Origin: a phage
Length of the DNA stretch: 64,000 nucleotides
Sequence record: PZ583741.1
Reading direction: 5' to 3' (one strand)
The translations under genes and the position numbers were made by a program. The notes beneath the pieces are model-generated. The model saw only the letters and a program-made list of their open reading frames with translations. It ran no database searches and had not been told where the DNA came from. Below are positions 4,275 to 64,000 of this stretch, in pieces; positions within the stretch are counted from its first letter, which is position 1; each line of letters opens with the position of its first letter.

Positions 4275-4279
4275 TATAA

Positions 4280-48860: not shown

Positions 48861-48904
48861 ATAGCACGAATTGCTAAAGCAGTCTTGGGGTAATTTGTTA
48901 TAGT
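48861..48904 (+). promoter_or_regulatory. B-module promoter cassette 4
   Basis: motif plus TGtTATAGT. Confidence 0.5.
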
Positions 48905-48934
48905 TACCACATCAAAACTAACGAGGTTATAAGA

Positions 48935-49039
48935 ATGAGTGAATTAATTAAAACTATCGCGGACTATCCATTTGCTTCGCTTTTTCTTGCTATTGCAATA
49001 TATGAAATTGTAAAGATTATTGTCAAATGTATTAAATAG
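48935..49039 (+). CDS. small membrane peptide (34 aa)
   Basis: manual ORF, GAGG RBS. Confidence 0.3.
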   Translation: MSELIKTIADYPFASLFLAIAIYEIVKIIVKCIK

Positions 49040-49079
49040 CACGAATTTCTAAAACATTATCGGGGTATCTTACTATAGT
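49036..49079 (+). promoter_or_regulatory. B-module promoter cassette 5 (variant TTTCTA)
   Basis: motif plus TATAGT at fixed spacing. Confidence 0.45.
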
Positions 49080-49109
49080 TACCCCATCAAAACGAAACAG
49101 GAAGCAGAA

Positions 49110-49289
49110 ATGAAATTTCAACAAGGCGAGCCAAAGCTACAAGTCAACCACTTCGATGGTTACGCAACATTCATCATAGCCCAGGCTTGCGGGATGCGAG
49201 ATGAACCTCACGTTCACACCATTCACTTAACAGAAGAACAGGCACGAGAACTGGCTTACGAAATTCTTGAGCAATTGAACCGAATTTAA
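49110..49289 (+). CDS. hypothetical protein (59 aa)
   Basis: GGAAG RBS. Confidence 0.4.
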   Translation: MKFQQGEPKLQVNHFDGYATFIIAQACGMRDEPHVHTIHLTEEQARELAYEILEQLNRI

Positions 49290-49338
49290 CGCGCATAAAA
49301 CGCATTCTAACGAACGATAATTTAAGTAAGGCGATTCT

Positions 49339-49497
49339 ATGATTAAGGTTGTTTTTATTGCTGATGATGGTGTTTATCCATTATTATCTAATGGTGATGT
49401 TATTTACGTGCAAGACATGGGTTGCGCATATATCTATACAGATGAGTTTGGTGACTCTTATTATATTGAGAAATGGGAAGTTGAGGAGATTGCATGA
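49339..49497 (+). CDS. small protein, paralog 1 (52 aa)
   Basis: MIKVVFIADDG...; similar to next ORF. Confidence 0.4.
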   Translation: MIKVVFIADDGVYPLLSNGDVIYVQDMGCAYIYTDEFGDSYYIEKWEVEEIA

Positions 49498-49655
49498 TTA
49501 AGCTTGTTTATGTGGGTGAGAGTGATTATGTGGCGCTCATTCAGAGTGGTGATGTGTTCTTCGCAGAGATGAGTGATGATGGTAGTTTCTACATCGTAAA
49601 GAACAAGAATGGCGAAGATATCTACCTTTCAAAAGATGAGGTCATCATTTACTAA
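49494..49655 (+). CDS. small protein, paralog 2 (53 aa)
   Basis: MIKLVYVGESD...; tandem duplicate. Confidence 0.4.
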   Translation: MIKLVYVGESDYVALIQSGDVFFAEMSDDGSFYIVKNKNGEDIYLSKDEVIIY

Positions 49656-49780
49656 TGGATAACTACGAATCACCAGTAGAGTGGTGTAAGCGAATGCAGG
49701 ACGAAGCTAAAACTGGTGAAGAGGCGATGGCTTACTACGAACTGGCGCAAATTTGGATGGAACGTGAGAAGAAAGAATGA
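49655..49780 (+). CDS. small hypothetical protein (41 aa)
   Basis: manual ORF with overlapping start/stop. Confidence 0.3.
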   Translation: MDNYESPVEWCKRMQDEAKTGEEAMAYYELAQIWMEREKKE

Positions 49781-49920
49781 GCTTCACTGAATACGTTATC
49801 GCATGCGAGAGACTGGTCTTTGACATGAAGACTTTTCACTGGTTCATCATCAAGGATTTAATTAAGCCTTACAAGCAAGGCGTTACGCCAGAGGCTTTTG
49901 TTAAGTCATTCTACAAATAG
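49777..49920 (+). CDS. small hypothetical protein (47 aa)
   Basis: manual ORF; stop TAG inside next motif. Confidence 0.35.
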   Translation: MSFTEYVIACERLVFDMKTFHWFIIKDLIKPYKQGVTPEAFVKSFYK

Positions 49921-49960
49921 CACGAATTGCTAAACGCAGTCGCCATGGATGGCATATAAT
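49917..49960 (+). promoter_or_regulatory. B-module promoter cassette 6 (-10 TATAAT)
   Basis: motif plus consensus -10 at fixed spacing. Confidence 0.5.
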
Positions 49961-49993
49961 TACCACATCAACACAACGAAGAGAGATATAATA

Positions 49994-50140
49994 ATGAAAA
50001 ATGTATTTGGCATCAGCTATGAAGAAGAGTTTGTTGATTGCCTTATTTACCTGAATGAGATCTACGGAGATGAGTTTGAATGTGATGGTGATTCACTTCA
50101 TGCAAAAATAGAACTTGAAACATTTGGGGAGGTTGTCTAA
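49994..50140 (+). CDS. hypothetical protein (48 aa)
   Basis: ATG at 49994 in ORF 49949..50140. Confidence 0.4.
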   Translation: MKNVFGISYEEEFVDCLIYLNEIYGDEFECDGDSLHAKIELETFGEVV

Positions 50141-50382
50141 TGATGTTTGGATTATCAGAAGCACACTTCAACGCAGTTAAACGCCAGGCAGCAAAGTTGA
50201 ACGAAGAGTACAGCAAGTTATCGCCAAAACAGCGCAAGGACGATAAGCAGGTTGCGGCATTGATTTCAAAGATGTGGGAGCCAGTTTTCACAATCATTAG
50301 TCGAGACCGCTTTGTTTGGACCAGTGGGTATCTTAAGGGTAGAGTAGGTCACGACGAGAATGGGAATAGTCTTTATGAGTAA
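50140..50382 (+). CDS. hypothetical protein
   Basis: 80 aa, GGGAGG RBS. Confidence 0.5.
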   Translation: MMFGLSEAHFNAVKRQAAKLNEEYSKLSPKQRKDDKQVAALISKMWEPVFTIISRDRFVWTSGYLKGRVGHDENGNSLYE

Positions 50383-50557
50383 TTGCAATAAGCATAGGTA
50401 TAAGTACGCTTTCAGTTCAAAACTTACAGCCCACGACATAAAACTACTTAATCTAGGTTACTTCAAATCCAGCAAAAATGAAAATCATGTCGGGGATTAT
50501 AGATCATTTTATGAGTGCGTTAATTGCGGCGAGATGATTGCGATGGGGGTATTATGA
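50360..50557 (+). CDS. hypothetical protein (zinc-finger-like)
   Basis: 65-aa ORF; start uncertain (50360 or 50375). Confidence 0.35.
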   Translation: MGIVFMSNCNKHRYKYAFSSKLTAHDIKLLNLGYFKSSKNENHVGDYRSFYECVNCGEMIAMGVL

Positions 50558-50640
50558 GTGAGTTAACAATCTGGTTTATCGCAGGTCTGATTACTTGGGC
50601 TTACTTTTTAATCGTTTAGATTGAGCTTGTTAAAAAGAGC

Positions 50641-50669
50641 TTGCATCACTGACAGGAATTATCTAATAT
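50641..50669 (+). promoter_or_regulatory. sigma70-like promoter (TTGCAT - 17 bp - TAATAT) upstream of tRNA
   Basis: hexamers and spacing read from sequence. Confidence 0.4.
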
Positions 50670-50838
50670 TAACCACGTAGACAAACGAGGCCACCAGGTG
50701 GCAACGGCGCACGGAGCGCACTACACGGCAAGTCCGTAGCTCATTAAGTAGCGTATGCGGCATTAAGACCTAGCGCAAATAGGCAGATTAATCGGCTGTA
50801 TCAGGCAGCCCCGGAGCCGTAACCGGGACTCATTCAAA

Positions 50839-50916
50839 GCTCTGCTAGCTCAATTGGACAGAAGCAACGACCTTCTAAGTCGCAGGTTACTGGTTCGAAT
50901 CCAGTGCGGAGCGCCA
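50839..50916 (+). tRNA. tRNA-Arg (anticodon UCU), CCA encoded
   Basis: 7-bp acceptor stem, GG in D-loop, anticodon loop CUUCUAA, T-loop TTCGAAT, 3' GCCA. Confidence 0.75.
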
Positions 50917-50931
50917 ATAAAGGAGTTCATT

Positions 50932-51114
50932 ATGTGGGATGTGAAGTTGTCAATTCGCTTAATGGGCCGCTCGTGCAAGAATTGCACTCAAGAATACATC
51001 GCGTCAGTTGCCGCAATCAGCGCTGAGGATGCGGTAGCGAAAGTAAAGGAGATGTCAGGCGCTGACCCTGACACCCACAAATTCCTGGTAGCTTACGTTC
51101 GTGAGCAAAAGTAA
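50932..51114 (+). CDS. hypothetical protein (60 aa)
   Basis: AAGGAG RBS; track ORF 50854 overlaps the tRNA so start moved. Confidence 0.45.
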   Translation: MWDVKLSIRLMGRSCKNCTQEYIASVAAISAEDAVAKVKEMSGADPDTHKFLVAYVREQK

Positions 51115-51154
51115 AAAGTGTTATACCCTCGTTAAGTTTCGTTTCTCTCGTTGT

Positions 51155-51184
51155 TTTTAGCCCTCGCTTGAGGGCTTTTTTTCG
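51155..51184 (+). terminator. rho-independent terminator
   Basis: hairpin agccctcgcttgagggct plus T6. Confidence 0.6.
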
Positions 51185-51225
51185 TCTGCAATATGCTATA
51201 ATCTGGAATCAACAAAGGAGGATTT

Positions 51226-51732
51226 ATGAGCAAAGCAGCATTAAAGATGGGTGAGGGAAATTTCAAGGCGCTCTACAACAAGAAGTATGGCGACATTGCT
51301 ATGGTGGCAATCAACCGCAAGTACACGCCTGAGGAAGTTTTCGATTTCGCCGTTAGATACTTCTCCTGGGCTGAGAGCGAGGCAATTAAGGCTATTGAGA
51401 CGGCTGCTTTCCAGGGTGTGGTTAGCGAGAGCCTCGTACACAAGCCTAGAGTATTCACCTTAACTGGGCTGGCGCTCTTTATGGGTGTCAATATCAATAG
51501 ATTCGCTCGCTGGCGTACTGAGGCTGGATACTCTGATGTGATGGAATTCATTGATAACGTTATTTACGAGCAGAAGTACCAGCTTGGTGTCGCAGGCATC
51601 ATCAACTCTACCATCGTTGGTAAAGAGCTAGGAATTGATAAGCCGCAGGAGATTAAGATTAGCAACAACTCCACAGCTAACGATGTTGACAGTATGAAGG
51701 AAGCACTTGAGTCCGTGATCAGTAAGCTATAG
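51226..51732 (+). CDS. terminase small subunit
   Basis: 168 aa, HTH-like TLTGLALFMGVNINRFARW; AAGGAGG RBS; upstream of large terminase. Confidence 0.6.
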   Translation: MSKAALKMGEGNFKALYNKKYGDIAMVAINRKYTPEEVFDFAVRYFSWAESEAIKAIETAAFQGVVSESLVHKPRVFTLTGLALFMGVNINRFARWRTEAGYSDVMEFIDNVIYEQKYQLGVAGIINSTIVGKELGIDKPQEIKISNNSTANDVDSMKEALESVISKL

Positions 51733-51800
51733 CACTTATTGTTAAAAGAATGGGCCCAATCAATGAGATAATTGGGTCACTAACTTAACGAGGTGATGAT

Positions 51801-52313
51801 ATGAATTGGCATGATTATTTTGAATACAAAGATGGGAAGATTTACTGGAAAGATTACGATAGCGAGAAGCTTGGAAGGAGAAGGATACAGCGAAGATTCA
51901 TAGGGAAAGAGGTTGGCGGCATTGATAAAAGCCTAGGGTATGTTAGGGTAAACATGCCTGGTAAAAAATATTGGGTTCATAGAATAATCTGGGAAATGCA
52001 TAACGGAGCAATACCAGAAGGTATGCAAATTGACCATATAAATCATGTTAGAAATGATAACAGGATAGAAAACATTAGGTTAGTTACAATTCAGGAAAAT
52101 AGAAAGAATCAGTCAATAAATTCTAGGAATAAGACCGGGGTTACCGGAGTCTGCATAGTATCTAGGACTGGCAAGTATGTAGCTCAAATAAAAAAGGATG
52201 GAGAGAATATTCACTTGGGATTCTTTGATAATATTCACGACGCATCGATTGTCAGGGCGAGGGCTGAATTTATTCTTGGGTATCATAAAAACCACGGGAG
52301 GAAAGATGAGTGA
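51801..52313 (+). CDS. HNH homing endonuclease with AP2 domain, between terminase subunits
   Basis: HRIIWEMHNGAIPEGMQIDHINH...DNRIENIRLV; C-terminal GYHKNHG. Confidence 0.85.
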   Translation: MNWHDYFEYKDGKIYWKDYDSEKLGRRRIQRRFIGKEVGGIDKSLGYVRVNMPGKKYWVHRIIWEMHNGAIPEGMQIDHINHVRNDNRIENIRLVTIQENRKNQSINSRNKTGVTGVCIVSRTGKYVAQIKKDGENIHLGFFDNIHDASIVRARAEFILGYHKNHGRKDE

Positions 52314-53877
52314 TTTGATAGTTTGGGATGAGTTAAATCATGCGCAGAAGATGGCTATCAAGGCCATCTCTGAGCATAGTTTCGAGGGGTTCTTGCGGTG
52401 TTTCTTCCAGATAACTCAGGGCGAGAGATTCAAAATGAATTGGCATGCGAAGTACCTTTGCCGCGTCATTGATGAGATTCTTGAGGGTAAGAGAAAGGAT
52501 ACCATCATAAACGTATCTCCGGGATCTGCCAAAACCGAACTGTTTAGCATCCACTTCCCTGTATATAGCATGATTAAGATTAAGAAGGTTAGGAATCTTA
52601 GTTTGTCGTTCTCTGACTCATTGGTTAAGCGCAACTCCAAGCGCGTAAGGGATTTGATAAAATCAAAGGAGTTCCAGGAGCTTTGGCCCTGCACCTTTGG
52701 AACGTGCAGGGATGACGAGATTCAGGTTCTTGATGAGAATGGCAAAGTTAGGTTTGAGTCTATATCTAAGGCGATGGCTGGTCAGGTGACAGGAAGCAGG
52801 GGCGGCTACATGACTGACGATTATAGTGGTTGCATAATGCTGGATGACCCACTAAAGCCTGATGACGCGTTAAGTAATGTAAGAAGAGAGGCTGTCAATA
52901 TGCTTCTCAAGAACACAATCCGTTCACGTCGAGCTAGCTCAGTAAAGGGAAAAGAAACGCCAATACTTTCCGTGCAGCAAAGACTTCATGTTCTGGACAC
53001 TAGCCACTTCATGGAGTCAGGGCAAATGGGCATAAAGTTCGACGTAGTGAAAGTTCCAGCCATAGTCACAGAGGATTACGCCGACACGCTTCCTGATTGG
53101 ATCAAACAACAATTTATTGATGATGTTCTTTCATCACCATTTGTAGAGCGGGATGGAGTTAAGTATTACAGCTACTTTCCGGCAAAGGAGTCAATAGAAG
53201 ACCTGATGGCTATGTGGGATGCTGACCCGTACACGTTCCTTAGTCAGTACCAGCAGGAACCTGTAGCTCTGGGCGGCAATCTTATTAATGTGGATTGGTT
53301 CCAGCGCCTTAGTGATACATTCATACCTCCAGCCAAGTATGATTATCGATTCATCACATGCGATACCGCGATGACCACTAAAAGTTACAGCGACTTCTCT
53401 GTTCTTCAGTTGTGGGGCTATAAAGATGCTAAGATTTACCTTATTGATCAGCGCAGGGGTAAATGGGAGGCCCCAGAGTTGGAGGCTGAACTTCTGGACT
53501 TTGAGAAGAAATCAAGGGCAACCAGTCAGTCAGATGGTATCCTCAGAAAGATTATTATCGAGAAGAAAGCGTCTGGTATCGGCCTGATTCAATCAGCTGG
53601 CAGGGTTATGCGAACACCGATAGAGCCATACGTACCGGATAATGACAAGCTAACCAGGGTGATGAGTGCACTACCACAGATTAAGGCTGGTAACGTAGTT
53701 CTTCCAGAGTCATCGCCGTGGCTAAACGGATTGCTCACTGAGGTTGCGGCTTTTACGGCAGATGACTCGCATAAGCACGACGACCAAATTGACTGTCTAA
53801 CAATGGCGGTAAACCTTGTACTTAACATCGCTGATGATCCTAAGGCGAGACTGATGCGCATAGCGGGAATGAAATAG
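52306..53877 (+). CDS. terminase large subunit
   Basis: Walker A-like VSPGSAKTE; C-terminal nuclease Asp residues; overlaps HNH stop by 8 nt. Confidence 0.8.
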   Translation: MSDLIVWDELNHAQKMAIKAISEHSFEGFLRCFFQITQGERFKMNWHAKYLCRVIDEILEGKRKDTIINVSPGSAKTELFSIHFPVYSMIKIKKVRNLSLSFSDSLVKRNSKRVRDLIKSKEFQELWPCTFGTCRDDEIQVLDENGKVRFESISKAMAGQVTGSRGGYMTDDYSGCIMLDDPLKPDDALSNVRREAVNMLLKNTIRSRRASSVKGKETPILSVQQRLHVLDTSHFMESGQMGIKFDVVKVPAIVTEDYADTLPDWIKQQFIDDVLSSPFVERDGVKYYSYFPAKESIEDLMAMWDADPYTFLSQYQQEPVALGGNLINVDWFQRLSDTFIPPAKYDYRFITCDTAMTTKSYSDFSVLQLWGYKDAKIYLIDQRRGKWEAPELEAELLDFEKKSRATSQSDGILRKIIIEKKASGIGLIQSAGRVMRTPIEPYVPDNDKLTRVMSALPQIKAGNVVLPESSPWLNGLLTEVAAFTADDSHKHDDQIDCLTMAVNLVLNIADDPKARLMRIAGMK

Positions 53878-53917
53878 CACAAATTGCTAAACACTAAAGC
53901 CACGGATGGCGTATAGT
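53874..53917 (+). promoter_or_regulatory. B-module promoter cassette 7 (variant ATAGCACAAATTGCTAAA)
   Basis: terminase stop TAG is inside motif; TATAGT at fixed spacing. Confidence 0.45.
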
Positions 53918-53946
53918 TACTTCACACAAAAGAGAGGAGAAGAAAG

Positions 53947-54279
53947 ATGAAGGCAGTATTTAAAGGTTATAAAAAAGCTGGTCGTTTGGAATTTACTATT
54001 GGTAAGATTTATGAGTTATCAGAAACACGCGGAGTGGGTGGATATATGGTGGTGACTGATGACGGTGGCTTTCGGGCAATATTTATCCCAGACAACATCT
54101 ATGATTTCGAGGTGTTGATCCCAGATGAATTTATCGGTAAAGAAAAGCAATTCAAATATTACATCAATGGCGAAGCTGTTTCTAAAGTCAAGTTCGATGA
54201 TACACTGTTATGCGTCAAGGAATTTAAATCTGATGGCATTGATACATCATCAATCAAGTTCGAAGTAAAATTCGAGTAA
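53947..54279 (+). CDS. hypothetical protein
   Basis: 110 aa, GAGAGGAG RBS, own promoter and terminator. Confidence 0.5.
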   Translation: MKAVFKGYKKAGRLEFTIGKIYELSETRGVGGYMVVTDDGGFRAIFIPDNIYDFEVLIPDEFIGKEKQFKYYINGEAVSKVKFDDTLLCVKEFKSDGIDTSSIKFEVKFE

Positions 54280-54298
54280 CCACAAAAGCTATGATAAA

Positions 54299-54325
54299 CT
54301 AGCCCCTAAATGGGGCTTTTTTATT
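54299..54325 (+). terminator. rho-independent terminator
   Basis: hairpin agcccctaaatggggct plus T6. Confidence 0.6.
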
Positions 54326-54335
54326 GGAGAAAAAC

Positions 54336-55562
54336 ATGGTCAAGACAGACAGCTACGCCAATATCTTTCTAGGCGGCAGTGATGGTAGTGAGATTTACGG
54401 GAGCTTGCAGAACCAAGCGCCTACAATTCTGGCTTCGCTTTATGCGGATAATGCACTGGTGCGTCGAATTATCGACACAATCCCGGAGACGGCATTAGCG
54501 GCAGGATTCCACATTGACGGCATTGATGACGAGCCTGCATTCTGGTCTCGCTGGGACTATCTGGAGTTGACAAGGCACATCAACGAAGCGTGGTCGTGGG
54601 CTAGATTGTTCGGTGGAGCGGCAATTGTCGCTATCGTTAAGGACAACAGAGCTCTAACAAGCCCAGTCAGAGAAGGTTCTGAGCTTGAAACTGTTCGCGT
54701 ATACGACCGCACACAAGTAAAAGTCCAAACTCGAGAGGAGAATCCGCGCAACGCACGTTTTGGTAATCCACTAACCTATCGCATCACCACTAATGAGAGC
54801 GATATGTTTTACGATGTGCATTACAGCCGCATTCATATCATCGACGGAGAGCGAATCCCTAACGTAATGCGTCGGCAAAATGATGGCTGGGGCCGCAGCG
54901 TTCTCTCCAGTGATATTCTTGACTCAATCAAGGATTACACCAACTGCGAACGACTAGCGACTCAACTGCTCAAGCGTAAACAGCAAGCGGTCTGGAAAGT
55001 CAAGGACCTGGCATTGCTTTGTGATGATAGTGAAGGAGTTGGCGCGGCTCGTTTACGTCTCGCTCAAGTTGATAACAACAGCGGAGTTGGTCAGGCAATT
55101 GGCATTGATGCGGAATCGGAAGAATACAGCATTCTGAACTCTGATATTGGTGGGATTGATGCGTTCCTGGATAAGAAGTTCGACAGAATCGTTGCTCTGA
55201 GCGGCATCCATGAAATAATCCTGAAGAACAAGAACGTCGGCGGCTTATCATCAAGCCAGAATACAGCGCTTGAGACATTCCATAAGCTAGTCGATCGAAA
55301 GCGTAACGCTGAACTGCTGCCGATTCTCGGGTTCCTGATTCCGTTCATTTCAGACGAGCAAGAATGGTCAGTGGAGTTTAATCCTCTGGCTCAGGAATCA
55401 AGTAAAGATAAAGCGGAGACCCTTGAGAAGAACGTAAACAGTATAGCAACACTAATTGCAGCTGGCGCTATGGATACTAGCGAAGCGCGTGATACACTAC
55501 GAACTATCGCGCCAGAGATTAAGATTGGCGATGGCAATATCGAACCTAAAGAACCAGTCTAG
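54336..55562 (+). CDS. putative portal protein
   Basis: 408 aa; between large terminase and scaffold. Confidence 0.5.
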   Translation: MVKTDSYANIFLGGSDGSEIYGSLQNQAPTILASLYADNALVRRIIDTIPETALAAGFHIDGIDDEPAFWSRWDYLELTRHINEAWSWARLFGGAAIVAIVKDNRALTSPVREGSELETVRVYDRTQVKVQTREENPRNARFGNPLTYRITTNESDMFYDVHYSRIHIIDGERIPNVMRRQNDGWGRSVLSSDILDSIKDYTNCERLATQLLKRKQQAVWKVKDLALLCDDSEGVGAARLRLAQVDNNSGVGQAIGIDAESEEYSILNSDIGGIDAFLDKKFDRIVALSGIHEIILKNKNVGGLSSSQNTALETFHKLVDRKRNAELLPILGFLIPFISDEQEWSVEFNPLAQESSKDKAETLEKNVNSIATLIAAGAMDTSEARDTLRTIAPEIKIGDGNIEPKEPV

Positions 55563-55631
55563 GAAGCAATGGCGACGACAGAGGAACCTAATGAATGATG
55601 AATTTGATGGCTTTTAGTGAGGAGAATTGGG

Positions 55632-56717
55632 ATGTCTAAAGCCCGCTATGACAGTGTAAAGTTTAAAGCAACAATCGACGAGAATGGATTCTTAGTTGAC
55701 ACTCCGGTAGTCGCTCGTCTCGGCGTGCAAGTCTACTACATGGAAGATGGTCGAACGGTTCGAGAGTTTCGCCCGGCAGAGGAGGTTTTCAATGATGAAT
55801 CTCTGGCAAGCTACCAGGGTAAGCCAATGACTCTTGATCATGTTTTCGTTAACTCAGAGAACGCTAAAGAGGTAGTAGTCGGCTCAGTTGCTGGAAAGGC
55901 AGAGCCATTAGGCAGCTCCGTGGTTGCTCCAATTGTTATTTACGATAATGCCGCCATTCAGGAAGCTATGTCAGGTAACGCAAAGGAGTTATCCGTTGGA
56001 TACTCATCAGTCATTGATTACACCCCAGGTTGGGGTGACCCTGTTACTGGTGAGTACTTCCTTAAGTCTGAAAGTGAGCTATTCGACGTACCAGAAGGAT
56101 GGCAGGAGTTCGACGCAATTCAGCGTGACATTAAAGTGAACCATCTCGCAATGGTATATCGCGGTCGCGCAGGTATTGCCAAATTGAATATGGACGGTGA
56201 GCAGGAAAACCCGTATACTACTGACGTTGATATCAATAAAGAGGATAAACAGGAAATGATTAAGATTAAACTAGACGGCGCGCAGGAATTCGAAGTCGCC
56301 CCAGAAATCGCTTCTCACATCGAAGCGCTGAACGCAAAGGCTGACACTGCAATCGCAGAGCGCGACTCGCTGAAAGCTAAGGTAGATGCAATTCCAGCTG
56401 AAATCGAGAAAGCAGTAGCTAAAGCTAAAGCTGATGCCGATGCCCTAGCCGCTCTGGTTGCTGTTGCTGCTGAAGCTGGTGTTAAGGCTGACGGCCTGGA
56501 TGCTAAAGGCATTAAAGTTGCTTACGTTAAAGAAGTCTCCAGTCTTGATGTTTCCGAGAAGTCTGACGCTTACATCGACGCAGCGTTCGACATTGCCAAA
56601 GAATCTGATAAAATGGCTGAAGTACGTAAAGCGACTACCGCTTCCGACAAATCTGACAGCGCCGAAGAGCCTAAGAAATTAGACCCGCGTGCTCGTTTAG
56701 CTAAAATTAAGAAATAA
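55632..56717 (+). CDS. putative scaffolding protein / prohead protease
   Basis: GAGGAG RBS; Ala/Lys/Glu-rich coiled-coil C-terminus. Confidence 0.55.
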   Translation: MSKARYDSVKFKATIDENGFLVDTPVVARLGVQVYYMEDGRTVREFRPAEEVFNDESLASYQGKPMTLDHVFVNSENAKEVVVGSVAGKAEPLGSSVVAPIVIYDNAAIQEAMSGNAKELSVGYSSVIDYTPGWGDPVTGEYFLKSESELFDVPEGWQEFDAIQRDIKVNHLAMVYRGRAGIAKLNMDGEQENPYTTDVDINKEDKQEMIKIKLDGAQEFEVAPEIASHIEALNAKADTAIAERDSLKAKVDAIPAEIEKAVAKAKADADALAALVAVAAEAGVKADGLDAKGIKVAYVKEVSSLDVSEKSDAYIDAAFDIAKESDKMAEVRKATTASDKSDSAEEPKKLDPRARLAKIKK

Positions 56718-56729
56718 GGAGTTATAAAC

Positions 56730-57239
56730 ATGGCAATTCGTTCCGTAGCACTGGCTGGTATGGTTTCTGATACCTCTCTGTATAACATCGACGGCGCTTG
56801 CGTAGTTGGCGGCAGCGATGCAATTCCGGTTGGTACTGTTGTTGGTGTAACAGCCGCTCAGCCTATAGATGGTCACAAAGTTGTTGGCCTTCCAGCTGTA
56901 ACTGGCACGGCAGTTAAACCTTATGGTGTTGTTGTTAAATCTCATTACGAGACTCCAGATGGCACAGCTCGCGTAAATGAAGCAGTTAACGTAATGACTC
57001 ATGGTCGCATCTGGGTTCGCACCACTTTAGCAGCCGCGCCAGTTTTTGGTAGCAAGGTTTTCGTAAACGCAAGTGGTGTAGTTGTTGCTGAAGCGGCTAC
57101 TACTACTTGGGAAACTGGTTTTACATTTGCTGGCGGTTACATCGCAAACACTGGCACAGACCCACAAAACCTGAGCGTTGATGGTGCCCTAGTTGAGGTT
57201 CAGCTTATCCAATCCACGGACTCAACCGTTGCAGCATAA
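56730..57239 (+). CDS. putative head decoration protein
   Basis: 169 aa between scaffold and major capsid genes. Confidence 0.45.
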   Translation: MAIRSVALAGMVSDTSLYNIDGACVVGGSDAIPVGTVVGVTAAQPIDGHKVVGLPAVTGTAVKPYGVVVKSHYETPDGTARVNEAVNVMTHGRIWVRTTLAAAPVFGSKVFVNASGVVVAEAATTTWETGFTFAGGYIANTGTDPQNLSVDGALVEVQLIQSTDSTVAA

Positions 57240-57253
57240 TAGTTAAGACTAAA

Positions 57254-57280
57254 CTAACCCGCTTCGGCGGGTTTTTTATT
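57254..57280 (+). terminator. rho-independent terminator (UUCG loop)
   Basis: aacccgcttcggcgggtt plus T6. Confidence 0.6.
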
Positions 57281-57362
57281 GCCTATCATCTCATCATTGC
57301 GTGGTCTAAAAACTCGTGTATAATGAACACGTAGACACCTAACTGAAAAGGAACAATAAAGA

Positions 57363-58304
57363 ATGGCCATTAAATTTGATGCAGAACAAGCAAAAATCAC
57401 CGCTCATCTCGAGCAAATGGGCGTAGACAAAGCTGATGCCGCTGGTATCTGGACCGTTAAGCAACTGACCGCCAATCTGGCACGTGCTTACGAAAAAGAA
57501 TATCCAGACAACTCCGTTGTTAATATCTTCCCTGTAACCAATGAAATCCCAGGTCATGCGAAATATTTCGAATATCCAGAATTTGACGGCGTTGGCATTG
57601 CTCAGATTATCGCTGATTACTCTGACGACTTGCCGCTGGTTGATGCGTTTATGACAGAGAAACAAGGTAAAGTGTTCCGCTTCGGTAACGCGTTCCTGAT
57701 CTCTACTGATGAAATCAAAGCTGGCGCTGCTACTGGTCAATCGCTGTCATCTCGTAAGCAGGCGTTGGCATTCGAAGCGCACGATAACCTGTTGGATAAA
57801 CTGGTATGGTCCGGCTCTACACCGCACGGCATTCCTAGCGTATTCGACCATCCGAACATCAACAACGTTGTTGCTGGTACGTGGAACTCCGCAGCTGCCG
57901 CCATGACTGATATTACCGCACTTATTGATGCAATCGAGACTTCGACTAATGGCACTCACACCGCAACTGATATTCTGCTGCCTGCTTCCGCTCGCCGCTT
58001 GATGCAAGAGCTGGTTCCTAACACCTCTATCAGTTACGCGCAGCTGTTCGCCACCAACAACTCGGGTATCAATCTGCGTTACCTTCAGTTCCTGGATAAC
58101 TACGATGGCGCAGGCGGCAAAGCTGCTCTGGCTTTTGAGAAGGATGCATTAAATATGTCTATCGAGATCCCGGAGGCCACTAACGTACTTCCTGGTCAAA
58201 TGAAGGATTTACATATCAAGTACCCCGTAACCTCTAAGGCTACAGGTTTGATTTTATATCGTCCTCTGACGATGGCGGTAATGAAAGGCATTACCTACGA
58301 GTAA
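57363..58304 (+). CDS. major capsid protein
   Basis: 313 aa; own promoter and strong terminator. Confidence 0.65.
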   Translation: MAIKFDAEQAKITAHLEQMGVDKADAAGIWTVKQLTANLARAYEKEYPDNSVVNIFPVTNEIPGHAKYFEYPEFDGVGIAQIIADYSDDLPLVDAFMTEKQGKVFRFGNAFLISTDEIKAGAATGQSLSSRKQALAFEAHDNLLDKLVWSGSTPHGIPSVFDHPNINNVVAGTWNSAAAAMTDITALIDAIETSTNGTHTATDILLPASARRLMQELVPNTSISYAQLFATNNSGINLRYLQFLDNYDGAGGKAALAFEKDALNMSIEIPEATNVLPGQMKDLHIKYPVTSKATGLILYRPLTMAVMKGITYE

Positions 58305-58307
58305 TAA

Positions 58308-58333
58308 ATGGCCCTCTTCGGAGGGCTTTTTTA
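58308..58333 (+). terminator. rho-independent terminator (UUCG loop)
   Basis: gccctcttcggagggc plus T6. Confidence 0.6.
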
Positions 58334-58396
58334 CGTCTGTACCAAATGGAATTGTTGGGTTATAATCACTCAATCAGATAAACAAAGGAGACAAAA

Positions 58397-58642
58397 ATGA
58401 TTCGTTTAGAACACACTGGCGCTTGCCTTATCGTTTACAGTGGCGAGAAATATCTACCTGGTGACACTTTCGAGGTTGATGTAATTTGCGACGGACTAAA
58501 GCGTTTAATCGCAGAGGGCAAACTCACCATTGATGGTGATGCCAAAGCAACCAAACAGATTGCGCAGGAAGTTGTTAGCAAGAAAAAGCGCAAGGAACCG
58601 AAAACCATCTCCGAAGCTGAGACTGGCAACGAGTACAAATAA
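58397..58642 (+). CDS. hypothetical structural protein
   Basis: 81 aa, AAGGAG RBS. Confidence 0.45.
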   Translation: MIRLEHTGACLIVYSGEKYLPGDTFEVDVICDGLKRLIAEGKLTIDGDAKATKQIAQEVVSKKKRKEPKTISEAETGNEYK

Positions 58643-58683
58643 CAAACAGGGGGCTTAGGCCTCCTTTATTGTATGGAGCTAAT

Positions 58684-59085
58684 ATGAATGATGCAATTTT
58701 GGCGTTTATGCGCTCACTCGTTCCTGCGCTCAAGGCAGTGGATGACGAATCAATTAATGTATGGATTGATTTGGCACGTCTATACGTATGCGAAAGCAAG
58801 TTTGGCGCAGACAAAGATAAGGCAGTAGGACTTTACGCATTACACTTGATGCTTGCTGATGGCGCATTTAAGGGTGAGAATGAAGGATTGGAAACATACA
58901 GCCGTAGAATGGCAAGTTATGCACTGAGCGGTGAATTCTCTATCACCTACGATAACCAATCAGCAATCCAGGGTGATTTATCATCTTCCTCCTGGGGTCG
59001 TATGTACAAAGCACTGCTCCGCAAGAAAGGTGGCGGCTTTGGATTGATTACTTCCGCTGGTGGCGGTGGGTGCGGTTGCCGATGA
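58684..59085 (+). CDS. putative head-tail connector
   Basis: gene order. Confidence 0.4.
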   Translation: MNDAILAFMRSLVPALKAVDDESINVWIDLARLYVCESKFGADKDKAVGLYALHLMLADGAFKGENEGLETYSRRMASYALSGEFSITYDNQSAIQGDLSSSSWGRMYKALLRKKGGGFGLITSAGGGGCGCR

Positions 59086-59453
59086 ACTACAGCGAAATCG
59101 AATCAATCACTCGCTCTGGAATTAACTTCTTTAGTGATGCTAATGGTGTTTACGAGATGAGCACTGGCGCTGGATATGTTGAAATCGTTAACGGAGTTGA
59201 AGTAGAAGTGCCAGCGCAAACATTCCAGCTAAAAGGCTTAGTGCGAGAAATCAAGACGCGCGATATTGATGGTGAGTTTATCCAGTTTGGCGATAAGCGC
59301 GGAATCTTCACGGCTCAGGTGGAAATTAAGCAGGGTTATCAGATTAAAGTTGATGGTGAGACTTTTGTTGTCGTTGACCCGCGCCCAGTTAAACCGACTG
59401 GCACAGTTGTTGGGTATAGACCGATTCTTCGTAGGGTGGCTACTTATGGCTAG
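59082..59453 (+). CDS. putative head-tail joining protein
   Basis: ATGA overlap with upstream gene. Confidence 0.4.
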   Translation: MNYSEIESITRSGINFFSDANGVYEMSTGAGYVEIVNGVEVEVPAQTFQLKGLVREIKTRDIDGEFIQFGDKRGIFTAQVEIKQGYQIKVDGETFVVVDPRPVKPTGTVVGYRPILRRVATYG

Positions 59454-59883
59454 AAATATTGGAAGCGTTGCTACGTTTGAGAAATCTATTGCTGACTGGA
59501 TTGACAGAGCAGATAATGGATTTGAAATTGTAGTAGCTAATACAGTTACCAAGACAGCTAATGCAATTGTTGACCTTTCTCCTGTCGACACTGGTAGGTT
59601 CAAAGCTAACTGGCAAATCACCGCAAACTCACCAGCTCAGCAATCACTGAATGAGTACGATCAGACTGGTGGGCAGACAAAAACATATCTCGCCAGACAG
59701 GCTAGAGCTGTCGCCAACTCAAAAGCTACGAGTGTTATTTATATAACCAACCGACTTGATTACGCTGCTGGGCTTGAGTATGGGGCATCAAATCAGGCTC
59801 CAGCTGGCGTTTTGGGTGTTGTGCAAGCAAGGTTGGGCAGGTACTTCCAGGAAGCGGTAGAGGAGGCTCGTCGTGCAATATGA
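59446..59883 (+). CDS. putative HK97 gp10-like head-tail connector
   Basis: SPVDTGRFKANW motif. Confidence 0.45.
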   Translation: MARNIGSVATFEKSIADWIDRADNGFEIVVANTVTKTANAIVDLSPVDTGRFKANWQITANSPAQQSLNEYDQTGGQTKTYLARQARAVANSKATSVIYITNRLDYAAGLEYGASNQAPAGVLGVVQARLGRYFQEAVEEARRAI

Positions 59884-60274
59884 ATTATCATTAGCAGCAA
59901 GGAAATTCGTCAACGATTTGTTGGTAAATGAATTTCCGGTCAGGTATCCAGTTGCGTGGGAGAACGCTAAGTTTACTCCTCCTGTCGATGGCTCAATCTG
60001 GCTTAAGTACGACTACACGGAAGTTGACACCGTAACTTACGGATTAAGCAGGAAGTGCAAATACTACGTAGGCATGGTGCAGATTTCAGTATTCTTCAGT
60101 CCTGGTACTGGAATTGATAAGCCGAGACGTATTGCTAATCAATTGGCAGAATCTATCGTTGATGGTACAATGCTTGACAGCGGGACCATTTATGAGTCTG
60201 GAGTTGTTAACCCCGTTATCAAATCCAAGTCTGGGTGGTTTATCCCGGTTCGTTTTTATGTTCGTCTAGACTAA
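59873..60274 (+). CDS. putative tail completion protein (GTG start)
   Basis: AGGAGG RBS 6 nt before GTG. Confidence 0.4.
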   Translation: MQYELSLAARKFVNDLLVNEFPVRYPVAWENAKFTPPVDGSIWLKYDYTEVDTVTYGLSRKCKYYVGMVQISVFFSPGTGIDKPRRIANQLAESIVDGTMLDSGTIYESGVVNPVIKSKSGWFIPVRFYVRLD

Positions 60275-60289
60275 CAAAAGGAAAAATAC

Positions 60290-60946
60290 ATGGCTCATTT
60301 ATCAAACGGCACCCAGGTGTTCGTAGAAGGCTCTCGCGGAACTGCAATTGACGTAACAGCAATTTCTAACGCAGTTACACCTGTTTTAACTGTATCTGAC
60401 GCATCAGGCTTGGTTGTTGGTGATTACCTGCTTTTCACCTCCTCTGCTTCGACGCTTCTGGCTGACAAGCAGGTTCGCGTAACTGCAATCTCTGGCACGT
60501 CAGTAACTGTTGAAGGTATTGATACATCCAGCACTACCAAGTTCCCAGCTGGTTTAACTGGTGAAGTTGTTAAGATCACTTCATGGTTCGAAGTTCCTTG
60601 TGTTCAGGATGTATCTACTGATGGTGGCGAACAGCAATTCGTTAACTTCCAGTGTCTTTCTGATGACCGTGAACAGCAGATTCCTACTTATAAGTCTGCG
60701 GTAACGAACACCTTCACCTTCGCTCACGAGTACACCAACCCGGTCTATCCGGTTCTGCGTAACTACGATGAGTCAGGTCAGGTTGTTGCAATTCGCCTGT
60801 TCGTACCTCGCGCTCAGGAAATGCGCTTGCAGTCCGGCACTATCGCTTTCAACGACACCCCTACCATTGGTGTTAACGAAATCGAAACGGTATCCATCGC
60901 AGTATCCATTCGTGGTCGCCTGTCCTCTGTGGCAGCTGAAGTTTAA
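60290..60946 (+). CDS. major tail (tube) protein
   Basis: 218 aa, AAGGAA RBS, upstream of chaperone pair and tape measure. Confidence 0.6.
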   Translation: MAHLSNGTQVFVEGSRGTAIDVTAISNAVTPVLTVSDASGLVVGDYLLFTSSASTLLADKQVRVTAISGTSVTVEGIDTSSTTKFPAGLTGEVVKITSWFEVPCVQDVSTDGGEQQFVNFQCLSDDREQQIPTYKSAVTNTFTFAHEYTNPVYPVLRNYDESGQVVAIRLFVPRAQEMRLQSGTIAFNDTPTIGVNEIETVSIAVSIRGRLSSVAAEV

Positions 60947-60949
60947 AGC

Positions 60950-60977
60950 ATAAACCCTCTTCGGAGGGTTTTTTATT
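60950..60977 (+). terminator. rho-independent terminator (UUCG loop)
   Basis: aaccctcttcggagggtt plus T5. Confidence 0.6.
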
Positions 60978-61029
60978 GCTACCAACCTGCTATAATGCAA
61001 TCTCACAAACAATAAGAGGATTAACTAAG

Positions 61030-61344
61030 ATGGCAAAGTTCAAACTTTCACTGGCGGCACTCCCAGACTTTAAGCTACCAGTAAAATTTAAGCTGGCTAA
61101 CGACCAGGATGTAGAGGTTATCTTTACAGTCAAGCACAAGAAAACATCAGAGCTTCAGGTGTTACTACAGAAAGAAGACCTGAGTACTAAAGAATTGATT
61201 ATGGCAATCGCCTCTGATTGGGACTTGGAAGAGGAATATAACGAGGATAACGTTAATGAGTTCTCTGACCTGTTCCCAGCTTCAACCGTTGCCCTTACTA
61301 CCGCTTATATGCAAGCGCTTGCTGGTCAGCGAGTAAAAAACTAA
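61030..61344 (+). CDS. tail assembly chaperone (G-like)
   Basis: 104 aa directly before tape measure; AGAGGA RBS. Confidence 0.55.
   Translation: MAKFKLSLAALPDFKLPVKFKLANDQDVEVIFTVKHKKTSELQVLLQKEDLSTKELIMAIASDWDLEEEYNEDNVNEFSDLFPASTVALTTAYMQALAGQRVKN
61335..61341 (+). promoter_or_regulatory. -1 programmed frameshift slippery heptamer A_AAA_AAC
   Basis: X_XXY_YYZ in zero frame, 1 codon before the stop. Confidence 0.5.
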
Positions 61345-61664
61345 AACGAGCGGTGTATCTACAGTACCAGTCAGAGCCAACTGATGCCGAACTGGAAGCT
61401 ATTGGGATGCGCCGCTCTGATTACGAAGACGAAGAGCCTGAGGTTTTGCACTTTGACGACAACATGATGAAGGCGTGGGACATTTATTGCTCAATGGCTA
61501 CGCAGTGGAGAGTCGGAGCTAACGGAGCTACAGGCCTAGATTACAACGTGCTAAACTTCCTCTTTAGAGTGTATAATGTTTCTGAAGAAGAATTGGTACT
61601 CAGCGATTTACGCATCCTTGAAGCTAAGGCTCTTGAGATGATGGATAACCTGAGAAAAAAATAA
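61338..61664 (+). CDS. tail assembly chaperone extension (GT-like, reached by -1 frameshift)
   Basis: -1 frame ORF open from slip site to 61664, no ATG of its own. Confidence 0.45.
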   Translation, partial: KLKRAVYLQYQSEPTDAELEAIGMRRSDYEDEEPEVLHFDDNMMKAWDIYCSMATQWRVGANGATGLDYNVLNFLFRVYNVSEEELVLSDLRILEAKALEMMDNLRKK

Positions 61665-61688
61665 CCCGCTTCGGCGGGTTTTCTATTA
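61661..61688 (+). terminator. terminator/attenuator hairpin (same sequence as 57256..57273)
   Basis: aacccgcttcggcgggtt followed by ttctatt. Confidence 0.4.
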
Positions 61689-61699
61689 TGGAGGCTTAG

Positions 61700-64000
61700 A
61701 TGGCAACAAATGAATTAGCCGGAATCACACTAGCCGTAGACGTCTCGCAGGTAGACAGGGGAACGCAATCCCTACAAAAGTTCAGACAGGCCAACCAACA
61801 GGCTGCATCTGGGATTAGTGAGTTCGTCAATGCTGAGCAGGTTGCTAAAAACCAGGCTAGAGATACCGCTCGCGCACTTGCTGAGCAACAGGCATCTTTA
61901 GCTAAATTGCAAACAGCTATTGACCCAACTGCGGCAAAATTCCGCAAGCTGCAGGAGGCTGCTGTAGGTCTTGATAAGGCGTTCGCTGCTGGAGTGGTTC
62001 CCGATGAGGAGTTTTTCCGCTTAGGCGAGGCACTTGAAACGCAGAATGCAAAACTTGCTCGTTCACGTGCGGCGCTAACTGAAGAGGGTAGAGCAGCTGC
62101 TCAGGCTGCAAAAGATAAAGCAAAAGCAAAGGCTGAAGCGGATAGATTTATCGCATCACTTGAGCGTCAGGCTCAGGCGGCAACATTGACGCGTGAGGAG
62201 TACCTAAAGTTACAAGCGGCCCAGCTTGGAGTAAGTTCTCAGGCAGCGCCTATTATTGACAGAATCGCCGATGCATCACAGAAGGCAAACACCCAGCTAA
62301 TTGCTCAGAGCAAGGCTTTTCAACGATCTGGCTTAAGCGCTGGTCAATACAAGAACGCAATTTCTCAGCTGCCAGCGCAGATTACTGATATTGGCACGTC
62401 GCTTGCTGGCGGCATTCCTATTTGGCTTATTGCAATTCAGCAAGGTGGGCAGATCAAGGATTCATTTGGCGGTATTGGTAACACCTTTAGATTCGCGCTT
62501 GCAGCCTTAAACCCATTTAATGTAGCTGTTGGTGTTTTGGGTGGCGCACTTATTGCTCTTGGTGTTGGTGCAGCTCAGGCTGAAAGTGAATTCAGAGCAT
62601 TAAACTCCGCAATTGCTTTCTCCAACAACTCTACAATCGCATCAATCTCACAGGTTAGAGAGTTGGTTAGCTCTGTTTATGATGCAACAGGTGCTACCAG
62701 AGGACTTGTGACTAGCATCGCAACAAGCCTTATTGAGCAAGGGAACCTTACGCTGACGCAGATTGACAAGATTACTAAATCGACCGCAAGATGGGCGCAG
62801 TTGACAGGTAAGGATGCGAAGGAGATTACTGGTTACTATAACCAGATTGCAAGCGACCCAATCCAGGGTTTAGTTGATTTGGATAAGCGCTTTAACTTCC
62901 TCACACAGGGGCAGTTGACGACAATCGAAAACCTGAGAAAGACAAAGGGAGAAGTTGAGGCCGTTACTGCTGCGATTGATATTTTCAGCAAGTCTCAGGA
63001 AGCCAACCTTAACGACATAGCTGCGCAGTTAACTCCGCTTGAGCTAGCCTGGAATGATTTCAGAAAGTACATCTCTGATATCTGGGATGCAATTAGTCGT
63101 AGAACTGTCGGGGCGCTGAACCTATTTGTTGACGTAATCGCCGGAACGATTGAACAGATCAGGGTATTCATTAACCAGGGTGATGTTCTGATTGGTGAAT
63201 TCGTAATTAGCGCAACTCAGGCATTGCAGAACATTCCTGGTCTTGATGGCGTTGGTGATGATGTTATCAAGGGGCAGCAGAAGATTATCGATGCCGCCAA
63301 GAAGCAAAACCTTGAGCTAGAGAAGTCTATCAAGGAGCGAGATGCCAGAATCAGAGAGGGAGAGCTTGGTTACGTTACTCGCAGAGAAAATCAGAATACA
63401 AATGAGCAATCAGGGACAGATGAGGAATTTGCAAAAAGGAAGAAGGCGCTTCAGGATGAGCTTGATGCGATCAAGAAGAACAGGAAAGAAGAAAATAGTA
63501 GGGTTAAGGAGCAAAGAGATTTAACAATTGGTTATGAATCTGGCGTTCTGGCGCTTCAGGCTCAACTCAAGGTGCTTCAGGAAAACAGGGATATTGGCGC
63601 AGTAATAAGCAATGAGCGCAAGCAGTATCTTCATGAGGAGGCCAAATTCAGGATTCTTGAGCAGAGACAACTTGATGGCTCAATTACCAAAGAGCAAGCA
63701 AGACTTCTCATTGAAAAGGATAAAGTTCTTGAGTTAGCCAGACAGAAGGCTGAGCTAGGTGATCAGATTGCTTTGCAGGAGCGAGCTAATAAGTTAGCTG
63801 AAGATAACCGCAAGAAGATTCTTCAGATTAACAATGAGGCAAGTAACATTGATTTGGGTGCTGGTTTATCATCTCGCGAGCAGCAGAGAGCCAAAGAGAT
63901 TCAGGCTCTTCAATCCAATCAGGTTAATGCTGGTGGTTCTGTTGATGATGTTGATTTTCAGCAACTTCTCGAAGCAAGACGTAACTTTTATGCTCAGGAG
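61700..64000 (+). CDS. tail tape measure protein (3' end beyond window)
   Basis: open frame from ATG 61700 to window end; coiled-coil; hydrophobic Gly/Ala-rich segment. Confidence 0.8.
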   Translation, partial: MATNELAGITLAVDVSQVDRGTQSLQKFRQANQQAASGISEFVNAEQVAKNQARDTARALAEQQASLAKLQTAIDPTAAKFRKLQEAAVGLDKAFAAGVVPDEEFFRLGEALETQNAKLARSRAALTEEGRAAAQAAKDKAKAKAEADRFIASLERQAQAATLTREEYLKLQAAQLGVSSQAAPIIDRIADASQKANTQLIAQSKAFQRSGLSAGQYKNAISQLPAQITDIGTSLAGGIPIWLIAIQQGGQIKDSFGGIGNTFRFALAALNPFNVAVGVLGGALIALGVGAAQAESEFRALNSAIAFSNNSTIASISQVRELVSSVYDATGATRGLVTSIATSLIEQGNLTLTQIDKITKSTARWAQLTGKDAKEITGYYNQIASDPIQGLVDLDKRFNFLTQGQLTTIENLRKTKGEVEAVTAAIDIFSKSQEANLNDIAAQLTPLELAWNDFRKYISDIWDAISRRTVGALNLFVDVIAGTIEQIRVFINQGDVLIGEFVISATQALQNIPGLDGVGDDVIKGQQKIIDAAKKQNLELEKSIKERDARIREGELGYVTRRENQNTNEQSGTDEEFAKRKKALQDELDAIKKNRKEENSRVKEQRDLTIGYESGVLALQAQLKVLQENRDIGAVISNERKQYLHEEAKFRILEQRQLDGSITKEQARLLIEKDKVLELARQKAELGDQIALQERANKLAEDNRKKILQINNEASNIDLGAGLSSREQQRAKEIQALQSNQVNAGGSVDDVDFQQLLEARRNFYAQE

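Follow-up and report, generated by a model that had tools for sequence, protein, structure and literature searches.

We analysed a 64,000-nucleotide stretch of phage DNA (sequence record PZ583741.1, hereafter the window), in which short hairpins capped by a UUCG tetraloop recur between positions 57254 and 61688. These hairpins are located wholly within the part of the window that belongs to the T1-like Drexlerviridae (Braunvirinae; hereafter module B), in its late structural module, where the following genes are found:

56730-57239, plus strand, phrog_1989 virion protein, 169 amino acids (aa)
57363-58304, plus strand, major capsid protein (ATG at 57363)
58397-58642, plus strand, 81-aa protein
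58684-60274, plus strand, four connector/neck genes
60290-60946, plus strand, major tail protein
61030-61344, plus strand, tail chaperone G (ATG at 61030)
ending at 61664, plus strand, chaperone T extension in the −1 frame (TAA at 61662-61664)
61700 onward, plus strand, tape-measure protein (ATG at 61700)

Hairpins at the gene ends of the late module

Seven hairpins, each followed by a T-run, were identified in module B. They are labelled T0a to T4 here; phages of similar name are always called phages.

51159-51182, plus strand, T0a: AGCCCUC(GCUU)GAGGGCU and a run of seven T, upstream of the small terminase gene
54301-54322, plus strand, T0b: AGCCCC(UAAAU)GGGGCU and a run of six T, directly upstream of the portal gene ribosome-binding site; conserved in relatives
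57256-57277, plus strand, T1: AACCCGC(UUCG)GCGGGTT and a run of six T, after the phrog_1989 virion protein gene
58310-58332, plus strand, T2: GGCCCTC(UUCG)GAGGGCT and a run of six T, 5 nucleotides (nt) past the major capsid stop codon
58648-58671, plus strand, T2b: AGGGGGC(UUAG)GCCUCCU and TTTATTG, the hairpin itself occupying 58648-58665
60952-60974, plus strand, T3: AAACCCTC(UUCG)GAGGGTTT and a run of six T, 5 nt past the major tail protein stop codon
61663-61682, plus strand, T4: AACCCGC(UUCG)GCGGGTT and TTTT then C, overlapping the chaperone TAA

An earlier, sequence-only reading of this DNA had described T1 to T4 as two pairs of identical hairpins. The first pair was confirmed, since AACCCGCTTCGGCGGGTT occurs exactly at 57256-57273 and 61663-61680 on the plus strand, while the second pair is identical only over the 14-nt core CCCTCTTCGGAGGG (58312-58325 and 60955-60968), the flanking positions being G...C at 58311/58326 and A...T at 60954/60969. 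The same reading rightly placed each hairpin behind a structural gene (those of the phrog_1989 virion protein, the major capsid protein, the major tail protein and chaperone G-T) and rightly noted that the copy before the tape-measure gene lacks a full T-run (TTTTC), but its series was incomplete, as three more members are present at 51159, 54301 and 58648. Relative to the preceding stop codon, T1, T2, T3 and T4 start at 16, 5, 5 and −2 nt, respectively. T2b begins 5 nt past the 81-aa gene and 19 nt ahead of the next ATG (58684), with no promoter behind it, and only 19 nt separate T4 from the tape-measure ATG, including the GGAGG ribosome-binding site (61690-61694) and again no promoter. All seven hairpins fall within the non-coding 5% of positions 51226-64000, and the five around the flagged region lie approximately 0-16 nt from stop codons.

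The stems of all seven comprise 5-8 pairs, at least four of them GC, and enclose loops of 4-5 nt, in keeping with the GC-rich stem of roughly 5-14 pairs and the loop of 3-8 nt that an intrinsic (Rho-independent) terminator requires. A T-run directly follows every stem on its 3' side, with six T at T1, T2 and T3 and weaker runs at T4 (TTTT then C) and T2b (TTTATTG), giving tail scores of 4.4-5.6. T1 to T4 all read C-UUCG-G on the plus strand, and their loop is UUCG on the sense strand only. The UUCG loop is not essential, however, as UUAG or UCAG replaces it at T2 in relatives and UUAG at T2b in the window itself. Folding of 45-nt windows gave energies of −12 to −16 kcal/mol for the seven hairpins, with z-scores of −3.03 (T0a), −4.58 (T0b), −2.99 (T1), −2.90 (T2), −1.8 (T2b), −3.58 (T3) and −1.7 (T4). 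A d'Aubenton-Carafa-type terminator score (after d'Aubenton Carafa et al. 1990), calculated with the modern energies of ViennaRNA and thus of relative value only, was positive for all of them on the plus strand (T0a ~47, T0b ~45, T1 ~43, T2 ~42, T2b ~24, the weakest, T3 ~34 and T4 ~29), while on the minus strand it was near zero or negative except at T4 (26). When one uniform detector was applied to the region of 51-64 kb, it returned seven hits on the plus strand and one on the minus strand, the latter mirroring T4. Applied to 20 related loci, the same detector, the score of which includes the T-run, found 115 co-oriented and 23 opposite hairpins.

We considered whether T4 might also act as a minus-strand terminator and rejected this as incidental, since what appears as its T-run on that strand is complementary to the AAA AAA Lys-Lys codons ending the chaperone gene, and since the closest gene on the minus strand in SU57 is located approximately 9.5 kb downstream, behind a bidirectional terminator of its own. 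An RNase III site needs about 20 base pairs (bp) or more of double-stranded stem, and processing by this enzyme was rejected because the stems here span 5-8 bp. A scan of positions 47000-64000 against Rfam 15, at E-values up to 1, returned a tRNA-Arg (50839-50913) as its sole hit and no curated RNA family for the hairpins.

Conservation and sequence identity

The 20 related loci comprised 11 from IMG/VR, found via the capsid protein, together with SU57 and 8 GenBank records spanning the family, and the junctions could be aligned within Braunvirinae and Rogunavirinae. In Braunvirinae, Rogunavirinae, Webervirus, Tempevirinae, Tunavirinae and Jhansiroadvirus alike, the same five junctions each carry a hairpin with a T-run, but its stem and loop are unrelated from group to group. 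This retention of position and structure while the sequence turns over is the signature of a functional RNA hairpin, and the combination of co-orientation, a U-run and an adjoining stop codon identifies such a hairpin as an intrinsic terminator.

Within the alignable set, compensatory changes were observed at three of the sites. At T1, most relatives carry AGCCTCC(TTCG)GGAGGTT, while the window, G8 and the locus L010 carry AACCCGC(TTCG)GCGGGTT; the stem is 100% paired with two pairs changed on both sides, compared with 42-70% pairing in slid controls. At T2 (16 sequences), pairing is again 100%, five of the six pairs have changed on both sides, the loop varies among UUCG, UUAG and UCAG, and none of 500 shuffles reached the observed covariation score, slid controls pairing at 34-62%. 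Most relatives have GGGCGC(UUCG)GCGUCC at T2b, which amounts to one compensatory pair. The T3 junction is occupied by unrelated hairpins in Rogunavirinae-like and other genera. At T4, the hairpin, its tail and the ribosome-binding site are invariant in 10 Braunvirinae relatives, and other subfamilies carry unrelated hairpins with runs of six to seven T. A family-wide MAFFT alignment of this last junction put the stems out of register, and hairpins were therefore detected in each locus separately and pairs were not counted. The hairpins found at the chaperone/tape-measure junction were as follows:

Rogue1: CCTCC(CTTTGT)GGAGG and seven T
TSK1: GCGCC(TACG)GGCGC and six T
tinuso: GCGCC(GCGA)GGCGC and six T
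Vc1: GCCCC(ATTTTA)GGGGC and six T
pSf2: CCGCC(GTTT)GGCGG and seven T

Existing annotation agrees at two places: T2 is annotated in the SU57 record as an ARNold terminator, and a 'terminator' feature of the CEB_EC3a record lies under its partial (60%) match to the T1 intergenic region.

The identity of T1 and T4 had been described as reuse of one element. The identity is real, but the copying that this wording implies does not follow, because the sequence is generic and occurs in hundreds of unrelated phages. Shuffles of the window predicted 0.00-0.03 matches for the repeated hairpins, a null that is too generous. At least 120 viral contigs contain the exact 20-mer AACCCGCTTCGGCGGGTTTT; 119 have no other similarity to module B, with GC contents from 30% to 67%, and a 65-nt query around T1 matched 514 phage records of many genera (Klebsiella, Pseudomonas, Vibrio and other phages). 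Within Drexlerviridae, the stems that carry a UUCG loop are limited to CCCGC, CCTCC, (G)CCCTC, GCACCC, GGGCGC, GGCC and GCGCC, so that two sites sharing one stem are unsurprising. That the two CCCGC copies are identical is thus attributable to a limited set of near-optimal stems; the sequence is a generic one and does not point to a special element being reused. The T1 copy is also present with its flanks, at 65 of 65 nt, in the ACG-M12, SCS31, ECH1, G8, UALMA_PCEc3 and PsgS01F records, and L010 has the CCCGC stem at T1 and a different stem at T4. Gene conversion from T4 to T1 in this lineage was considered and set aside, since coincidence within the small stem repertoire is sufficient. In unrelated contigs (L032, L038, L050, L057, L058 and others), CCCGC(UUCG)GCGGG is often followed by TTTTTTATTGCC or TTTTTTTATGCC, frequently just before GGAG.

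Candidate promoters, read-through and the probable function of the hairpins

Three promoter-like sequences lie behind T1, T2 and T3:

57297-57324, plus strand, TTGCGT, 16-nt spacer and TATAAT (the latter at 57319), upstream of the major capsid ATG
58361-58366, plus strand, TATAAT −10 element ahead of the 81-aa gene, with a weak −35 element
60988-60996, plus strand, extended −10 element TGcTATAAT (TATAAT at 60991) ahead of the chaperone ATG, where a −35 region would overlap the T-run of T3

All alignable relatives keep the block of the putative capsid promoter, cattgcgtgg.ctaaaaactcgtgtataatgaa, of which Rogue1 shares the −10 region (ctcgtgtataat); the −35 element of this promoter matches at only three of six positions. 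TATAAT at 58361 is retained in 11 of 11 relatives despite divergence of the spacer. At the place equivalent to the site between T3 and the chaperone gene, the Rogue1 GenBank record annotates a 'promoter, extended −10 region'; the TGcTATAAT version is found in the window and SU57 only, the other relatives carrying a moron of approximately 330 bp with its own promoter there. On the plus strand of positions 51226-64000, TATAAT occurs four times in total, and three of these occurrences are located just behind T1-T3 in the non-coding 5% (binomial P about 5e-4). The fourth is inside the G-T frame at 61572, 91 nt upstream of T4.

The hairpins fall into two classes with respect to these sites. In the first (T1, T2 and T3), the hairpin and its run of six T are followed by TATAAT 12-45 nt further on, while in the second (T0b, T2b and T4) the hairpin and T-run sit on the ribosome-binding site of the next gene, as in ...TTTTCTATTATGGAGGcttagATG, leaving no room for a promoter. 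In the sequence, a pattern of terminator, putative promoter, gene and terminator can be followed for the capsid gene (57319 to T2), the 81-aa gene (58361 to T2b) and the chaperones (60991 to T4), and it lacks a promoter for 58684-60946 and for the tape-measure gene. With no promoter behind the hairpins of the second class, the portal gene, the five genes of 58684-60946 and the tape-measure gene can be transcribed only by read-through. Two claims of the sequence-only reading have to be adjusted in this light: a TATAAT was proposed to follow each of the four copies, which holds for three (57319, 58361 and 60991) and not for the copy at 61663, and the description of the region as a series of insulated mono- or bicistronic units is too strong, because no promoter lies behind the hairpins at 58648 and 61663, where read-through is needed. 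Its proposal that the hairpins are terminators, with attenuation at the tape-measure copy, is supported by intergenic position, scores, co-orientation, positional conservation and compensatory stem changes.

Taking this evidence into account, the UUCG hairpins are very probably part of a series of seven co-oriented intrinsic terminators in the late module of a T1-like phage; that RNA polymerase terminates at them, with what efficiency, and that the promoters are active is what we infer from these features. In the emerging transcript, a stem of 5-8 bp, rich in GC and with a very stable C(UUCG)G cap, would form just before the U-run, and hairpin and U-run together would release part of the host sigma-70 RNA polymerases. 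The transcript level would then step down past the genes for the bulk products (the phrog_1989 virion protein, the major capsid protein, the major tail protein and the tail chaperones), and the TATAAT promoters behind T1, T2 and T3 would restart transcription for the next gene, while T0b, T2b and T4 would act as leaky attenuators setting lower levels for the portal gene, the connector/tail genes and the tape-measure gene. The series would thereby combine graded attenuation with three promoter re-boosts, yielding more transcript for capsid, tail tube and chaperones than for the tape-measure and connector proteins.

Several observations weigh against this interpretation, in addition to the relative nature of the terminator scores. 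The stems are short, with 5-6 GC pairs and core energies of −7 to −11 kcal/mol, and efficiency may be low at T4, which has only four U, and at T2b, which has only three before the interruption. Within the close clade, T3 and T4 do not vary and thus show no covariation of their own, their support coming only from non-alignable replacements elsewhere. A strict two-hexamer sigma-70 scan showed no enrichment (23 sites compared with 21.3 expected); the weak −35 elements of the three TATAAT sites keep these out of its hits, and we relied instead on the intergenic TATAAT enrichment and on conservation in relatives as evidence for promoters. Finally, a literature search found no 3'-end mapping, RNA-seq, transcriptome or Term-seq study of a T1-like phage.

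Among the alternatives, the one we would rank next, though we consider it unlikely, is late antitermination, in which a phage protein or RNA acting on the host RNA polymerase overrides the hairpins, making them a timing device and not static leaky terminators. The essential genes without promoters (tape-measure, portal and connector) are preceded by terminator-like hairpins throughout Drexlerviridae, with runs of six to seven T in several subfamilies, and read-through of these promoter-less copies would, if such a mechanism operated, be regulated rather than passive. To our knowledge, no late regulator has been described for T1-like phages, and nothing in the present data shows read-through to be regulated. 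Somewhat less probable again is a main role as intercistronic mRNA stabilizers, blocking 3'-to-5' exonucleases after an endonuclease cut in the AU-rich spacer, so that the capsid and tail-tube segments of the mRNA would outlive the downstream ones and differences in expression would arise from decay and not from termination. UUCG hairpins are exceptionally stable, the U-runs of T2b and T4 are short, and T0b, T2b and T4 sit without a promoter on the next ribosome-binding site, where a strong terminator would be costly and a stabilizer harmless. A pure exonuclease barrier needs no T-run, however, and one lies behind every hairpin, reaching six to seven T at the T4 equivalents of other subfamilies; the orientation bias of 115:23 comes from a score in which the T-run is counted. 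Stabilization is compatible with termination, as a terminated transcript ends in the same protective hairpin, and the two probably coexist.

It is quite improbable that the units of hairpin, T-run and ATTGC serve as DNA recombination joints resembling the PeSL cassettes of T4-like phages, an established precedent (PMC4122927), with ectopic exchange explaining the identity of the copies. This explanation could draw on GGGTTTTTTATTGC, which is common to T1 and T3, on the CCCGC and CCTCC stem alleles, which different lineages carry in every combination at the T1 and T4 sites, and on the location of morons and HNH genes in relatives, which is always between a T-run and the next promoter. Such insertions are nonetheless expected there, because it is the only place where an insertion is harmless; the common sequence is only 14-25 nt long, the 20-mer, often with an ATTGCC tail, is present in at least 119 unrelated viral contigs, so that convergence suffices, and no recombinant junction was mapped inside a hairpin, the insertions and deletions only adjoining them. 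We give slightly less credence still to the idea that T4 chiefly serves the tape-measure gene as a translational or leader element, either as context of the ribosome-binding site or within a 5' leader starting from the TATAAT at 61572. The hairpin, tail and GGAGG are invariant in the 10 relatives against a 2-6% difference in the coding flanks, GTGTATAATGT (61570-61580, in the G-T frame) is shared unchanged by Braunvirinae and Rogunavirinae although the surrounding nucleotide identity is only 68%, and in a weak alternative fold UUUCU pairs with part of GGAG. That fold, however, accounts for only 15% of the ensemble, full terminator-like runs of six to seven T are present at the same junction in other subfamilies, and the TATAAT encodes a conserved Tyr-Asn in FLF.VYNV, a motif missing in tinuso. 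Protein conservation can thus explain GTGTATAATGT, which, judged on its sequence, could be an internal tape-measure promoter or simply the conserved Val-Tyr-Asn-Val. Chance palindromes without function, for which the short stems and the z-scores of only −1.7 (T4) and −1.8 (T2b) might speak, are effectively refuted by the shuffle expectation of 0.00-0.03, the exclusively intergenic and co-oriented placement, the covariation and the family-wide conservation of position.

Read as leaky intrinsic terminators, the hairpins are of small importance beyond annotation, in that together with the three promoters they provide a usable transcription map of the late module for this group of phages. Such a map would account for the production of more capsid and tail-tube protein than tape-measure and connector protein. 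Safe insertion points, from the T-run to the next promoter, can also be read from it and may be useful for phage engineering, and the short hairpins themselves could serve as compact terminators in synthetic constructs.

In relatives, extra genes (small morons, a 1.4-kb open reading frame and HNH endonucleases) sit exactly between the T-run and the next promoter, and the window has none. They are inserted at T1 in L011 and Rogue1, at T2 in L004 and Rogue1, and at T3 in most relatives:

L011: 4656-5000
L014 (Rogue1): 3390-5000 and 5949-6525
L004: 5943-6529
L003-L008 and L011-L013: after T3

Compared with G8, its closest relative, the window lacks the moron behind the major tail protein gene.

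Related systems and neighbouring features

The hairpins correspond to a textbook set of short intrinsic terminators, in a family for which such a layout has been described before. The UUCG loop is reportedly over-represented in Escherichia coli terminators, a finding credited to d'Aubenton Carafa and colleagues in 1990. C(UUCG)G hairpins were first recognized in the intercistronic regions of phage T4, and hairpins with UUCG and GAAA tetraloops, known from T4 mRNA, are described as Rho-independent terminators (Tuerk 1988, cited in PMC3972237). The C(UUCG)G terminators share with the present hairpins a stem of 5-8 bp rich in GC, a C-G pair closing the UUCG loop, a U-run directly on the 3' side, an intergenic position just past stop codons and a coliphage that uses the host RNA polymerase, and nothing in structure sets the putative terminators of the window apart from them.

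For phage T1, an organization in 'transcriptons', units flanked by terminators and carrying their own sigma-70 promoter, was described in 2004, and it matches the model of the sequence-only reading almost to the letter; the authors of the paper on phage TLS could not confirm transcriptons in that phage. Module B belongs to the same family and shows, in its sequence, the same alternation of terminator-like hairpins and promoter-like sites at orthologous junctions, and hairpins are found at the same junctions in Tunavirinae and Tempevirinae loci. It differs in that stems and loops are unrelated between subfamilies, UUCG dominates in this Braunvirinae genome, and the ATAGCAC...TAAA repeat is missing at 57-62 kb. 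With neither an RNA polymerase nor a sigma factor of their own, T1-like phages depend on the enzyme of the host (PMC11447400), and papers on T1-like genomes routinely list 8-21 predicted terminators (PMC4070988, PMC7718038).

Terminators right past the most abundant structural genes, with downstream genes that need read-through, are also found elsewhere. In phage T7, T-phi is a leaky terminator behind the major capsid gene 10, and in phage LUZ7 more than 60% of the mapped termination sites are leaky, with substantial read-through, and tune expression (PMC9163698). Phage T7, however, has its own RNA polymerase and a longer hairpin, while the hairpins of the window are short, would depend on the host polymerase and are interspersed with putative sigma-70 promoters.

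Two types of repeated extragenic element were also compared. The REP/BIME elements of E. coli are imperfect palindromes of approximately 35 nt with a consensus of their own and no U-run, often arranged in inverted clusters. Like the present hairpins they are repeated palindromes between the genes of operons, but neither their consensus, nor the absence of a U-run, nor inverted clustering was seen here. The PeSLs of T4-like phages (PMC4122927) likewise combine a repeated terminator with a promoter and have variable genes adjoining them in relatives; they are longer, highly similar to one another and located in hyperplastic early-gene regions, with documented recombination, whereas the shared sequence here is 14-25 nt long and generic, and the hairpins do not qualify as PeSLs.

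A direct repeat of the T1 family, ATAGCAC-NNN-TTGNTAAA, occurs in eight copies on the plus strand, compared with 0.65 expected, in the early and terminase region. The copies of ATAGCACnnnTTGnTAAA are located at the following positions:

47703, plus strand
47967, plus strand
48423, plus strand
48861, plus strand
49036, plus strand
49917, plus strand
51729, plus strand
53874, plus strand

For phage TLS, it has been suggested that this repeat might be an enhancer or a 'stoperator'. One copy directly follows the T3 hairpin in most relatives and heads the moron of approximately 330 bp, which is missing in the window and in SU57. We rejected the repeat as a part of the hairpin feature, as no copy adjoins the four hairpins at 57-62 kb.

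The window as a whole consists of two unrelated phages joined in the middle of a gene. From position 1 to approximately 47400, it matches Jerseyvirus/Kagunavirus-like siphoviruses (such as HC6, VSt472 and Segz_1), similarity to the portal gene of this group ending at approximately 47400-47406, and from 47404 onward it is T1-like Drexlerviridae, with 99.4% identity to Escherichia phage vB_Ec-G8 at the junction (position 25903 of the G8 record) and 95.7% over 55-63 kb of the window. Identity of the Drexlerviridae part to SU57, DTL, JulesPiccard and vB_EcoS phages is 87-90%. Since the join at approximately 47.4 kb falls inside the portal gene of the first phage, we take it for an assembly chimera or for concatenated records and not for a natural recombinant. 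The first phage (1-47400) has hairpins of the form AAGCCCC-loop-GGGGCTT, for example at 1288, 4908, 12141, 18262, 22343, 29753 and 36412; A- and T-runs flank these on both sides, so that they look bidirectional, and none has a UUCG loop.

In the Drexlerviridae part, the slippery heptamer A_AAA_AAC is present at 61335-61341, where the chaperone G frame ends, and one PHROG profile (213 positions) spans chaperone G and then T. From the sequence, the heptamer and the −1 frame of T are predicted to be the usual programmed −1 frameshift that makes the G-T tail chaperone. The same part contains a tRNA-Arg gene (anticodon TCT) at 50839-50916 on the plus strand, where the Rfam match was obtained, and one arginyl-tRNA has been reported in other T1-like phages.

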